Source: Octopus vulgaris
Taxonomy: Eukaryota
Assembly: GCA_951406725.2 (NCBI GenBank)
Contig: OX597819.1
Coordinates: 26,412,001 to 26,476,000, forward strand
Direction: 5' to 3'
DNA length: 64,000 nucleotides
The translations under genes were made by a program, and so were the position numbers. A model generated the notes under the pieces. It did no database searches, was not told the DNA's origin, and saw nothing but the letters and a program-made list of their open reading frames with translations. Below, in pieces: positions 3,184 through 50,991 of the stretch (positions within the stretch are counted from its first letter, which is position 1; each line of letters starts with the position of its first letter).

Positions 3184-5974
3184 GCTTGAATTTAAATATT
3201 GGGCTTCATTTTTATGGGGAATGTAGGATAAAAAGTAGAAAAAGCATTGCTAAAAAGTGTTACCACTGACACGAGTGAGTAGATGAATTAAATAGGATTT
3301 CACAACATACTCCAACGTGTCATATTCGAGCATAATTAAAATGATATTTGGATCTTATTTCTTTATAAGTTTTACAGATTTTATGCGTAAATGTCATAAT
3401 CGTATCTAAGAGGCCTTAAATGAACTAAAGTAATGAAATATTTCTCCAAGAAATTGCTTTATGATACCCTGTAGTTACTTCGTTCTTTATAACTATGGGA
3501 CGATTTTACAATGTATGATGTTGCTCGCATAAACATATTTGTAACACTTCTTTTAATTGTAATACCGAGACCAGATGTCCACATTGAGTGCTTATATATA
3601 GGTCTTTGGGTCAGTGTTTCCTCGTTGTATTGATTATTTTTATTAAATCGTCTACTGATGCTTCATAATCTATATTTTATCCAACCCAAATAATCTTTTT
3701 TAAATTTTCAGTGAAATCGCATGTTATACCAGGTTGTCTGTGATATTTCCTTTAATGCAAAAACTGTCATTATATAAGTGAGAGTATTTGAGTTCAAGTA
3801 TTAGAAACAATCATGGTAGTGAAACAAAACCAAATTTTAGGTGACTTTCCTTGCATTTTAATAATAAAAATCTTTCAATTTGGTTATTTTATCCAAACAG
3901 TGCTTGCAAAATTTCCCATGCCTTTAAACGCATGGCCTTGTATCACCTTCGCGTATTATTCTCGATATGTGTATACTCGTAAGGGTTACGTTGCCCTAAC
4001 TTAGAATATTTATTAGTTTGTAAGTGTTGGTGAACCAATCAGAAAACTCAGTATCAGGAGATCATGATCTTGAAAATGTCTTGAAAGATATTATGAGACT
4101 GTTCATTTAATGTCTGTTTTATTGCTAATTACATGGGAAATGCTGATCATGATCAGGACTATTCTAATTAATTAATTGAATCAGTTCAGGTCTCAACCAA
4201 AAATAGCTCGAAATATTTTTTGAAATTATATTTGTTACCTAGAGCTGAACTGGTTGCTTCAATTAACTTCTTCCTCTAAAAATTCCAGGCTTTCAACCCC
4301 TATTGGAAATAATTATTATTCAGTAGTTTGTAATATACATTAAGAGTTCATTTTCTTTCATAAAAAAATTGGAATGCTTAAAAATTACACAGATTAAAAA
4401 TGTTTCAGGAATCTGTACTAGCAATATTTACAGTCACCAGCTTGAATTTAAATATAGGGCTTCATTTTTATGGGGAATATAGGATAAAAAGTACAAAAAG
4501 TATTGCTAAAAAGTGTTACCACTGACTTAGTGGACGAATGAGAAGATGAATTACATAGGATTTCACAACATACTCCAACGTGTCATATTCGAGCATAATT
4601 AAAATGATATTTGAATCTTATTTCTTTATAAGTTTTACAGATGTTATACGTAAATGTCATAGTCTTATCTAAGAGGCCTTAAATGAACTATAGTAATGAA
4701 ATAATGTAAAGTATAGAAGCCATCTTATCATGGCTAACCACATTGGGGAGGGGGTGTTACTGTAGCTTTATAGCCCCAAGAGATCTTCGTCTGGGGCTAT
4801 AAGGCTACAGTAACACCCCCTCCCCAATGTGGTTAGCCATGATAAGATGGCTTCTATACTTTACATTATCGAGCGATTACTGTTTCAATCTCATTCTGAG
4901 ATTTAATTATGAGTAATGAAATATTTCTCCAAGAAATTGTGTTATGATACCCTGTAGTTATTTCGTTCTTTATAACTATGGGACGATTTTACAATGTATG
5001 ATGATGCTCACATAAACACATTTGTAACACTTCTTTTAATTGTAATACCGAGACCAGATGTCCACATTGAGTGCTTATAAATCTGTGGGTCAGTTTTTCC
5101 TCGTTGTATTGATAATTCTTTTTTTAAAATCACCTACTGATGATTCATAATCTATATTTTATCCAACCCAAATAATCTTTTTTAAATTTTCAGTGAAATC
5201 GCATGTTATACCAGGTTGTCTGTGATATTTCCTTTAATGCAAAAACTGTCATTATATATGTGGGAGTATTTGAGTTCAAGTATTAGAAACAATCACGGTA
5301 GTGAAACAAAACCAAATTTTAGGTGCCTTTCCTTGCATTTTAATAACAAACATCTTTCAATTTGTTTATTTTATCCAAACAGTGCTTGCAAAATTCCCCA
5401 TGCCTTTAAACTCAAGGCCTTGTATCACCTTCAAATCACAATTATTTCTCTTAACAGGCATTTTTTTTTTACTAGAAAGTCTGTATTATTCTCGATATGT
5501 GTATACTCGTAAGGGTTACGTTGTCCTAACTTAGAATATTTATTAGTTTGTAAGTGTTGATGAACCAATCAGAAAACTCAGTATCAGGAGATCATGATCT
5601 TGAAAATGTCTTGAAAGATATTATGAGACTGTTCATTTAATGTCTGTTTTATTGCTAATTACATGGGAAATGCTGATCATGATCAGGACTATTCTAATTA
5701 ATTAATTGAATCATTTCAGGTCTCAACCAACAATAGCTTGAAATATTTTTTGAAATTATATTTGTTACCTAGAGCTGAACTGGTTGTTTAAATTAACTTC
5801 TTCCTCTAAAAATTCCAGGCTTTCAACCCCTATTGGAAATAATTATTATTCAGTAGTTTGCAATATACATTAAGAGTTTATTATCTTTCATAAATAATTT
5901 GGAATGCTTAAAATTTACACAGATTAAAAATGTTTCAGGAATCTGTACTAGCAATATTTACAGGCACCAGCTTG
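3184..5974. repeat. ~1.25-kb tandem duplication (3184-4439 / 4440-5974)
   Basis: Highly similar copies, with GCTTG at all three junctions (3184, 4440, 5970). Copy 2 has a 208-bp insertion plus TSD and a ~50-bp segment (~5433-5482) absent from copy 1. Confidence 0.95.
4704..4911 (+). mobile_element. Short hairpin-plus-tail insertion (PLE-like inverted terminus)
   Basis: 78-bp inverted arms 4701-4778 / 4792-4869 (1 mismatch), 13-nt spacer, ~42-nt tail. 12-bp TSD AGTAATGAAATA at 4692-4703 and 4912-4923. The empty site is visible in duplication copy 1 (~3429-3440). Confidence 0.85.
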
Positions 5975-7948
5975 CCTGTTTTCTCAAACTTGGCTATTTT
6001 CAAGTGTTTATATATATCCATAAATAGAATCTATCGCTGTCTTTACAGAAGTAGTTGTCTATCAATATAGTTGTAGCTATTACAGAAGAGATTACGGTGA
6101 TACACCTTAACTACCATAATAGTTTTAATTCAATAGCTAGGTCAGAAGAATTCCTTGCCTTTTCCGCACAATTCTGCACTACATTATCATTATTCGTTAT
6201 TACTATATCGATTATTATTAATACAGACTATTTTCATTTTCTTGTTATGAAAAATGTCATCCGACATATCATGTGATATATGGCCTGTATGCTAAAGTTC
6301 CTTCGTAACTTGTCGTTATTCTTTCATAACAGGTGTGTAAACATATGAGTAGTCCAGATATTTTTCGAATGAATTAAAACTGAATTGGTAGGAGTATGTA
6401 GAGCATCTTAGTTACGTTCAAATGATACCTATGTAAGACATTTCTCATCGACATTTCACGTGTAAATTGTTCCTATAAATGCTTAGTGGTGGTGGCCAAA
6501 ATTGTGGCTTGTACTGACACGTTCAGGTTCGATTTATGCATGCACACCAGATATATTGTCCTGGGCAAAATATTAAACTGACAGGCTGATAGTTTATGTC
6601 GTATGGAGTCCAGTCTAATCAAAGAAGATACTACAAGTGAAGAGCCCTAGTTATGCAGAAGATGGAGTTGTCACTAAGATATACAGTATTGGAGAAAGGC
6701 TGTTGTCTAGATATGTCACACAAGCCTGCCGACATGTGGACATACCTTCATGACGTGTGAACCAGTACTCCTCCCTAAGAGTTAAACAGGCTGAGATTCA
6801 GGAGTACATACGAAAAAGCAGGAGACTAGCAGAGTTAATTGTAAATAAACCACAGGAATGCGGTTTATTTACGACTCTGCCTTTCATACCTTGTAGTCAA
6901 TAAAATAAACTTCAACTGAGCGCTAGGGTGCAAGATATCGATTAAACCCACTCTCTGAATATTTCAGGCGTAGTGCCTTAAATTATTATTTGGTAACAAG
7001 TACTTCTGTTCGCCAAAATTTGGAAAGCTGTTCAAGAATTATCGAGAAATTAGAGATTCGGTGAGTAAATGAGTAATCTTAATGGTGAGACTAGGGCTCA
7101 CTATTGCCCTGCCTAAAAGAAAACATCTTGGCTTTTGTTCCATATTACTGAATAGCGTTACCAATTTTGACGACGTCTGTTTTTGAAACGTACTATATGA
7201 CTACACAAAATAAACTATGGAATATCGTCGATACTATGTCTTTTCCAATTTCTTATTCGCACAATTTTTAAACCATTGTCTCTTCTCTCTGTCGCTGCAT
7301 TCATTTTTAAATAACCATCTTTTTTACCTTTCTACGACATACTGTGGCATCTCCTTTTTACATCATCATCACTTTGTTTCCCTTCTCCCATTCTACGTCT
7401 TCATCACCATTTATCTTTGTTTTGTGTCAATTTCATTTCTTATGATAGCTCTCTCTCTCTCTCTGCCCAAGTCTACAATGCTACGTCCTCCGCTCTCGTT
7501 CAGTAATTTTACCTCCGTATCTTTCATTCTATATTTTGATGTCCTTTCATTTCTACATCCTTCTCTTTCATTCTCTATCTCTAATGTCCTTCACTGTTTT
7601 TGCTTCCTTCTCTCCCACTTCTATTTCTACGTTATCTATGGGGCATTTTTCTCCAGCATTTTCCCCTCCTTATACGCCACCTTTTCATTTTTTTGTTTTT
7701 ACGCTACACCATTTCATTCCCTATTTCTATGTCCAACTCATTTAAGTTTTTCTTTCGCATTCTTTCCTATATTTTCATCACCCTTTCTTACTAAAACGTA
7801 CTCATTCCGACTTCGTACATCATCAATTCTTTGCCTTTCCCTCTTGCATTATTATTTCATTTTTTAACAGCCTCAACACCCAAATTTTAATCTTTCATCT
7901 ACCTTTTTTATGTACTCCATTCACTCTCGCTTGATGGTTACACACACA

Positions 7949-8013
7949 CTCTCTCTCTCTCTCTCTCTCTCTCTCTCTCTCTCTCTCTCTCTCTCTCTCT
8001 CTCTCTCTCTCTC
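7949..8013. repeat. (CT)n microsatellite
   Basis: Read directly. Confidence 0.95.
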
Positions 8014-50305: not shown

Positions 50306-50621
50306 AGGGGAAGCTTTATGAAAATAGACAAAAGACGAAGGCAGGTGGGAAACAAACAAACAATTGTATTAGTATGGTGCTCAGGAAATATAAATAAAAC
50401 AAGTCTTTAACGTTTCGAGCCTACGCTCTTCAACAGAAAGATACACAGAGAGAAAAATAACACAGAAAGAAGGAGAGAAAAAAATGCGTGCAGTAACTAA
50501 CGAATCAACATGGCGATCTGATTTCGGCCAGAGGTCAAAGATCAAACATGAGACCCGAGAGCGAAATAAGGGGAGATAATAGGGTTGATAATAGGGTTGA
50601 ATGACCAGCTATTAGTGCGTA
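50306..50621 (-). mobile_element. PLE-like 3' fragment with minimal hammerhead variant, in (TA)n
   Basis: Minus strand reads TCTTT-CTGTTGA-A-GAGC-GTAG-GCTC-GAAA-CG-TT-AAAGA. Homologous to ~45680-45830. Confidence 0.6.
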
Positions 50622-50700
50622 ATATATATATATATATATATATATATATATATATATATATATAATATATATATATATATATATATATATATGTATGTAT

Positions 50701-50991
50701 TTATTACGGAGATGTACTTGCGTAGCAAGTGACCTGGTCTGAGATAGTGTGCTGGAACGAAAACAATTGCAGCGTGGAAGGTGTTTATAAGCCATTTAAG
50801 AAACACACAAAAACCGTTATATTCACTTCAACATAAAATTCCGTGCTGCACGGAATTTTGTCAGTGAACTGGTCACGGTCTTAAAGCGACGAAAATAATT
50901 TGGCAAATTTAATTTAAATGTTGAAGTGAATCTACCGGTTTTCGTGTGTTTCTTAAATGGCTCATAATCACCTTCCACACTGCAGTTATTT
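50701..50991 (-). mobile_element. Hairpin-plus-tail insertion in (TA)n
   Basis: Inverted arms ~50761-50834 / ~50918-50991, central palindrome AAAATTCCGTGCTGCACGGAATTTT (50835-50859), and a ~60-nt tail on the left. Confidence 0.8.

Follow-up and report, generated by a model that had tools for sequence, protein, structure and literature searches.

Four unrelated fold-back insertions in Octopus vulgaris share a hairpin-and-tail plan and are likely products of Penelope-like elements

We analyzed a 64,000-nucleotide (nt) stretch of the Octopus vulgaris genome (assembly GCA_951406725.2, contig OX597819.1, positions 26,412,001 to 26,476,000 of the forward strand; here called the window) that carries four short insertions, E1 to E4. 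Each of the four consists of an inverted, 5'-truncated copy joined to a direct copy of the same sequence, with an unpaired tail on one side. We consider them likely to be minimal insertions made by the proteins of Penelope-like elements (PLEs), each comprising an inverted end copy, a direct copy and a tail. For E2, which also has a hammerhead-like motif, membership of the PLEs is well supported. For E1, E3 and E4 the assignment draws on architecture, and the chance that it is right is somewhat better than even.

RESULTS

Four insertions of unrelated sequence share one plan

When the window was compared with itself, E1 to E4 were the strongest local inverted repeats (E values of 1e-29 to 1e-111), and an inverted pair at 35658-35960 equaled E4 in strength. 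The arms of E1 (4701-4778 and 4792-4869) matched at 77 of 78 positions around a spacer of 13 nt, those of E2 (40938-41058 and 41093-41214) in 118 of 123 alignment columns around 34 nt, and those of E3 (47964-48089 and 48130-48255) at 125 of 126 positions around 40 nt. An alignment that permitted a long gap revealed that E4 is a perfect palindrome whose loop is the single nucleotide 50847. Its tail-side arm (50761-50846) is without 58 nt that are present in the other, 144-nt arm (50848-50991), and 78 of the 86 aligned bases in the two arms are identical. A reading of the window made from its sequence only had given each element inverted arms and a short spacer, which describes E1 to E3 but not the palindromic E4 with its deletion. 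The tails, one-sided in all four elements, measure 42 nt in E1, 156 nt in E2, 55 nt in E3 and 60 nt in E4.

In pairwise comparisons, E1 to E4 showed no sequence similarity above chance (best E value, 0.1). Together with the arm alignments, this bears out the sequence-only reading in its claim that four unrelated insertions follow one hairpin-and-tail plan. Self-comparison turned up each element just once in the window, with no second direct copy in head-to-tail arrangement. The parts of the elements are listed below in window coordinates, with the target site duplications (TSDs) and, for E3, the short interspersed nuclear element (SINE) that hosts it.

4692..4703, + strand: E1 left TSD, 12 bp, found as a single copy at the empty paralogous site 3429-3440
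4704..4778, - strand: E1 inverted arm (77/78), whose pairing runs 3 nt into the TSD
4779..4791, + strand: E1 spacer, 13 nt (arm alignment)
4792..4869, + strand: E1 direct arm (arm alignment)
4870..4911, + strand: E1 tail, 42 nt, with a 7-bp stem-loop 8 nt from its end (stem-loop and hairpin scans)
4912..4923, + strand: E1 right TSD (direct repeat, empty site)
3429..3440, + strand: empty site of E1, in that copy of the 1.26-kb local duplication which E1 did not enter (220-nt gap)
40938..41058, - strand: E2 inverted arm, ending within the 5' strand of stem II, with (TA)n on its left
41059..41092, + strand: E2 spacer, holding the stem I 5' strand, the catalytic core (41078-41084) and the start of stem II
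41068..41161, + strand: E2 predicted type I hammerhead (descriptor scan; not called by Rfam)
41158..41163, + strand: E2 AATAAA, 6 nt past the predicted cleavage site (sequence)
41093..41214, + strand: E2 direct arm (118/123 columns)
41215..41370, + strand: E2 tail, 156 nt, followed by (TA)n (sequence)
47952..47965, + strand: E3 left TSD, 14 bp, within a SINE copy (six other SINE copies unbroken)
47966..48089, - strand: E3 inverted arm (125/126)
48090..48129, + strand: E3 spacer, 40 nt, with two small internal hairpins, common to many copies
48130..48255, + strand: E3 direct arm, with three small internal hairpins
48256..48310, + strand: E3 tail, 55 nt (hairpin scan, contig depth)
48311..48324, + strand: E3 right TSD (direct repeat)
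50701..50760, - strand: E4 tail, 60 nt, with a 6-bp stem-loop 15 nt from its end and (TA)n beyond
50761..50846, - strand: E4 tail-side arm, from which 58 nt are deleted between 50834 and 50835 (gapped alignment)
50848..50991, + strand: E4 full arm, 144 nt, with the single base 50847 as apex and (TA)n beyond

The small stem-loops that had been described near the tail ends are present as quoted, and they lie 8, 23 and 15 nt from the element end in E1, E3 and E4. They are rarely unusual against the background of the window (P = 0.02, 0.20, 0.20 and 0.08 for E1 to E4), however, so as a shared feature they are weak: E1's alone stands out singly, and the combined P value of about 0.014 is post hoc. 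Neither poly(A) nor a short tandem 3' repeat was found in the tails of E1 and E3, and a 19-nt motif of E4 had no match in viral or metagenome contigs. The tail of E2 contains a larger hairpin in an AC-rich stretch (region 41244-41270), with a 7-bp outer and a 5-bp inner stem, which is a candidate reverse-transcription start signal.

E1 and E3 are bounded by true target site duplications

E1 is flanked by a 12-bp direct repeat (4692-4703 and 4912-4923) and E3 by one of 14 bp (47952-47965 and 48311-48324); the two repeats are 83 and 93% AT. A direct duplication of about 1.26 kb (3184-4444 and 4440-5974; 91-92% identical) is present locally; E1 sits in one of its copies, and the paralogous site in the other is short by exactly 220 nt, the sum of the 208-nt element and the 12-nt TSD. 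Because the other copy of the duplication holds an empty site, E1 inserted after the local duplication arose. E3 breaks a SINE, and six other copies of that SINE in the window, as well as many contigs, cross the site uninterrupted. An 18-bp unit repeated in tandem fills about 950 bp (46900-47850) directly upstream of the host SINE.

Since empty paralogous sites exist for both elements, the repeats around E1 and E3 are true target duplications, as the sequence-only reading had proposed when it described 12- and 14-bp TSDs in AT-rich sites. Its placement of the other two elements within (TA)n was also correct: E2 and E4 are flanked by (TA)n tracts, in which a TSD cannot be defined. In a systematic scan of the local hairpins of the window, only E1 and E3 had a flanking direct repeat longer than 8 bp in this position; one further match, with an 8-bp direct repeat, falls inside the nested arms of 35658-35960. 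None of the four elements has TT at both flanks.

E2 contains a hammerhead-like motif

A type I hammerhead descriptor run over both strands of the 64 kb gave a single match, inside E2, with its core at 41078. Stem I pairs at 9 of 10 positions and stem II, which has a 31-nt loop, at 11 of 12. The GAA lies at 41140, stem III is palindromic, and the triplet is GUA, with cleavage predicted after 41151. Of 2,000 dinucleotide shuffles of E2, none reached the score of the motif and one gave any match at all. From their sequence, the motif and the AATAAA just past it would make up the signature of a PLE pseudo-long terminal repeat (pLTR).

Comparison with published PLEs shows likenesses to the Hydra clade. 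The E2 core and palindromic stem III match the hammerhead pattern tabulated for this clade (PMC8557442 supplement). In that supplement, Hydra-1_oBim has a core spelled as in E2, although the rest of its ribozyme sequence differs, and Hydra-1_cRog has a palindromic stem III resembling that of E2. Hydra-clade PLEs also have their type I hammerhead near the 3' end and prefer (TA)n targets, as at E2, and Penelope-13_HM, which belongs to the same comparison, has a 5'-truncated inverted copy (PMC8557442). Unlike theirs, the stem II of E2 is long, at 11-12 bp with its 31-nt loop, and E2 has no open reading frame that would assign it to a clade. The E2 arm ends 123-130 nt past the start of stem II; in the Anolis PLE, reverse transcription starts 111-118 nt into the open reading frame that begins at stem II (PMC11167929).

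The plan of E2 recurs with the same type of ribozyme in unrelated DNA. We collected 63 comparator loci in a metagenome scan using a pattern derived from the E2 motif. Because the pattern came from E2, these loci test architecture and not the ribozyme call; 6 of the 63 passed a strict hammerhead scan and 57 failed it, many being chance matches to the pattern. At four of the 63 loci (L004, L019, L031 and L058), the outer end of a fold-back lies 97-103 nt past the core while its apex varies, and the fold-backs are between 179 and 361 nt long in total. The tails measure about 30 nt at L004 and 37 nt at L031, where the candidate TSDs, of 11 and 9 nt, are of low complexity. At L019 the inner inverted arm ends within stem II, like that of E2, and the tail is on the inverted side; L058 is a fold-back without a tail. 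AATAAA is found 12-16 nt past the motif in 9 of the 63 loci. L019, L031, L058 and a further locus, L026, form one hammerhead-bearing fold-back family in which the tail can be at the right or the left or be missing. A match to a reverse transcriptase (RT) in L001 looked Gypsy-like by eye and was unlinked to the motif there, and it was not used as support.

E3 belongs to a high-copy family

E3 is a member of a high-copy family. We looked at its coverage in the contigs of four public runs (X1, X4, X10 and X12), where every bin of E3 was covered. Mean depths over the left arm, spacer, right arm and tail were 429k, 612k, 441k and 741k in X1; 473k, 329k, 379k and 972k in X4; 33k, 49k, 34k and 29k in X10; and 2.6k, 2.3k, 2.4k and 2.4k in X12. 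Such summed depth is no copy number, the single listed X1 contigs over E3 having depths of mostly 37-64, and contig depth is no measure of expression. The parts of E3 lay within threefold of each other in all four runs, and depth was between 1e4 and 1e6 across all parts in the three DNA-like runs, which bear three organism labels. The tails had been called unique, and this is true within an element only, since that of E3 is high-depth family sequence.

Because the spacer is as deep as the arms and tail, the coverage suggests that many E3 copies share the apex, i.e., that they are a fixed unit. The expected variation in arm length between copies showed at the comparator loci and did not show in E3. 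Depth in X4 is greater over the outer arm and tail than over the inner parts, so shorter or diverged copies are also possible, and diverged contigs (records 1 and 9) keep the same join of arm to tail. No single contig from the four runs spans the whole of E3. A contig that crosses arm and spacer reaches 27 nt into the spacer, short of the 31 needed for bridging, and in the tables of contig joints and loose ends the ends of E3 copies are obscured by the SINE flanks.

The two small hairpins of the E3 spacer form a T-shaped apex, and the three in the arm are of 6-8 bp (48090-48255). Some copies of the family have deletions across the hairpin, from 48017 to 48169, 48070 to 48180 and 48121 to 48275. 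These hairpins appear prone to deletion, as with the 58-nt loss in E4. In X12, a run guessed to be RNA, E3 had 0.064% of the depth of the flanking SINE (1.1-2.2% in the other three runs), and A>G or T>C places were not in excess over E3, where repeat copies confound editing; neither result was used as evidence.

E1 to E3 account for most fold-back sequence outside simple repeats

In RNA folding, each of E1 to E4 folded into one long helix, and transcripts through the elements are predicted to form near-perfect duplexes of 78-126 bp. We counted fold-back 50-mers in the window with an ungapped version of the measure in PMC5625713, a near-perfect reverse match within 2 kb. There were 1,112 among 63,951 50-mers in this one window, which may be untypical. 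Simple repeats contributed 677 of them, E1 to E3 372, E4 none and the rest of the window 63. E1 to E3 therefore supply 372 of the 435 fold-back 50-mers outside simple repeats, or 0.58% of all 50-mers in the window.

Other fold-back structures in the window

Inverted arms of 33 bp (32/33 matching) with a 101-nt spacer and a tail of about 90 nt lie at 56604-56860 between two (TA)n tracts. This structure may be a fifth element built on that plan, and it contains no hammerhead. The inverted arms at 35560-35997, which measure about 44 and 80 bp, are nested, have a spacer of 143 nt and carry 61 additional nt on their left side. We found no TSD for them; they contribute about 54 near-perfect fold-back 50-mers.

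DISCUSSION

A Penelope-like origin for E1 to E4

The sequence-only reading took as established that PLEs often integrate as an inverted partial pLTR plus a tail, and the literature agrees. PLE insertions have been described with an inverted pLTR, an optional 31-bp tail and TSDs of 8-10 bp (PMC3846280), and with an inverted 5'-truncated copy, a 30- to 40-bp tail at either end and a preference for (TA)n (PMC8557442). A type I hammerhead resides in the pLTR of the Penelope/Poseidon, Neptune and Hydra groups and is absent from Naiad (PMC8557442). The Anolis PLE cleaves and extends both strands of AT-rich DNA and has two internal start sites, the distance between them being the tail (PMC11167929). 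The same pattern is thus found across PMC3846280, PMC8557442 and PMC11167929, and to present the four elements as a class overstates their novelty. Any novelty would lie in the families themselves, in their longer tails and in a high-copy unit that has no hammerhead and whose apex seems fixed. Our literature searches found no description of these families in cephalopods, for which Repbase and Dfam may already hold entries.

E1 to E4 share with the insertions of endonuclease-bearing (EN+) PLEs the 5'-truncated inverted copy joined to a direct copy, the one-sided tail and the AT-rich targets, to which are added variable-length TSDs in E1 and E3 and a hammerhead-like motif in the repeat of E2. 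They differ in that no coding sequence is left, that the tails are longer, that the TSDs of E1 and E3 are of 12-14 bp rather than the 8-10 of Adineta PLEs, and that E3 looks like a fixed high-copy unit. Naiad PLEs resemble E1, E3 and E4 in being without a canonical hammerhead, and they too show (TA)n preference and an inverted copy with a tail; both Naiad and Hydra families have been reported from Octopus (PMC8557442). That these are minimal PLE-driven insertions is best upheld for E2, with its hammerhead-like motif, AATAAA and comparator loci. The pattern fits all four, but neither the window nor the published consensus file yielded an RT/GIY-YIG frame linked to E1, E3 or E4.

We infer the steps of a possible mechanism from the one published for the Anolis PLE. 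The GIY-YIG endonuclease would nick both strands of AT-rich DNA, and the staggered cut would give rise to the TSD. Reverse transcription would start at two internal sites of one RNA, one for each target strand. The two cDNAs would then join at their far ends to form the hairpin, leaving the stretch between the start sites as the tail. At least E3 would multiply in the form of a short, fixed-apex unit that is non-coding and draws on PLE proteins in trans.

Several results weigh against a PLE origin. No Pfam match was found in any of the 348 window frames (at least 48 amino acids and past a complexity filter), and the window yielded no recognizable gene. Four 11-nt motifs were unmatched in the published Naiad/Chlamys/Hydra consensus file (PMC8557442), and by eye there was no match to Naiad_Ovul or to the available parts of Naiad_Obim and Hydra-1_Obim. 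No PLE-type frame was found next to the comparator loci, where 1 of 69 frames had an RT match. For E2, Rfam calls no hammerhead and gives sub-threshold generic hairpin matches only, and, at -9.0 kcal/mol, the hammerhead fold falls short of the local minimum fold (-17.3 kcal/mol) in stability; the ribozyme of the Anolis PLE needed protein for cleavage (PMC11167929). Neither strand of E1, E3 or E4 holds a hammerhead core, even allowing one mismatch before GAAA. The tails, at 42-156 nt, are longer than the 30-40 nt of published PLEs, and the geometry of E1, E3 and E4 (inner repeat 42-60 nt and palindrome 8-23 nt from the end) fits HINEs too. A 70-amino-acid frame over the E2 tail was rejected, its one weak match being to a repetitive part of an unrelated protein.

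Other origins

The likeness to HINEs deserves attention. These non-autonomous, DINE-1-like Helentron derivatives move by rolling circle; one of their inverted repeats is set back 2-4 nt from the 5' end and the second 38-60 bp from the 3' end, with a palindrome of 5-10 bp situated 8-35 bp from that same 3' end (PMC4067079). E1, E3 and E4, with tails of 42, 55 and 60 nt and stems 8, 23 and 15 nt from the end, share the asymmetric repeats, the tail length and the small 3' palindrome, and would be HINEs with unusually long subterminal repeats. The HINE repeats are of 12-15 bp, however, and insertion is at TT with no TSD (PMC4067079), whereas our arms are of 78-144 bp and TT is never at both flanks. 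TSDs with empty sites rule this origin out for E1 and E3, and E2 has a hammerhead-like motif and too long a tail. We think HINEs an improbable source overall, and most plausible for E4. Elements moved by cut and paste, either miniature inverted-repeat transposable elements (MITEs) or foldback/Mutator-like elements with a captured flank as tail, would account for long, near-perfect arms and for a fixed unit at high depth. We rate them as more improbable still: the TSD lies 42 and 55 nt past the second arm and is of 12 bp in one case and 14 bp in the other, the same asymmetry and variable TSD length from which MITEs had already been doubted, correctly in our view. The E3 tail, moreover, is family sequence at the depth of the arms and is kept in diverged copies. 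Symmetric MITEs fail for all four elements.

Should E2 alone be a PLE product, E1, E3 and E4 could be non-autonomous fold-backs moved by another target-primed system, their hairpin having arisen once in a master copy. R4/Dong or RTE elements could be the movers, Dong-R4 and RTE-BovB being enriched in coleoids (PMC8967140). This mixed origin, which we consider unlikely, is in keeping with the finding of neither a hammerhead nor a PLE frame for E1, E3 and E4 and with an E3 spacer common to many copies, as a master hairpin would predict, and TSDs of 12-14 bp in AT-rich DNA suit any target-primed mechanism. It sits less well with E1 and E3 tails that have no poly(A) or short tandem 3' repeat and with four unrelated sequences on one plan that is typical of PLEs. 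Twin-priming inversions of long interspersed nuclear elements are also not known to duplicate 78-126 bp of one sequence. That the elements are local palindromes that never transposed, produced by replication template switching, or artefacts of assembly is scarcely credible. E2 and E4 do lie in microsatellites and no one contig crosses E3, but clean, TSD-bounded insertions with empty sites tell against such an origin, as does the depth of E3 (1e4-1e6 in all parts, in three DNA-like runs of three organism labels).

Among described non-autonomous elements, the non-LTR retrozymes of animals are short, non-coding, hammerhead-bearing derivatives of the PLE pLTR moved in trans (bioRxiv 10.64898/2026.07.22.740005). 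They occur as head-to-tail tandem or dispersed monomers; E1 to E4 are fold-backs, three of the four without a hammerhead. Eulor-type "hairpin-tail" repeats are a further candidate, for which literature searches and passages of PMC5753468 gave no description to compare.

Double-stranded RNA and the fold-back load of octopus genomes

The sequence-only reading further proposed the elements as candidate ADAR or siRNA substrates, which they may be if transcribed. In Octopus bimaculoides, 0.44% of random 50-mers have a near-perfect reverse match within 2 kb, an exceptionally high figure, and hyper-editing is exceptionally high too; the repeats responsible are not named in the available part of that study (PMC5625713). 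The idea that such elements yield double-stranded RNA (dsRNA) has precedent, because lizard Penelope and the palindromic Harbinger of the frog Xenopus are heavily adenosine-to-inosine (A-to-I) edited repeats (PMC5625713). Both are self-folding, as E1 to E4 are.

We offer one further proposal, doubtful as it is: hammerhead-less, fixed-apex units like E3 may be a distinct non-autonomous partner of PLEs, a "fold-back SINE" present in thousands of copies, and such families may be the main non-microsatellite source of dsRNA and of the A-to-I hyper-editing load in octopus. The E1 to E3 families are a concrete candidate for the fold-back load reported in O. bimaculoides; in our window, microsatellites contribute more (677 of the 50-mers). 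Penelope-like insertions of this kind are also a likely identity for short repeats that automatic annotation would leave unknown or label MITEs. Should fixed-apex units be mobile in this form, they would show which cis signals are the minimum for PLE mobility in hammerhead-less lineages.

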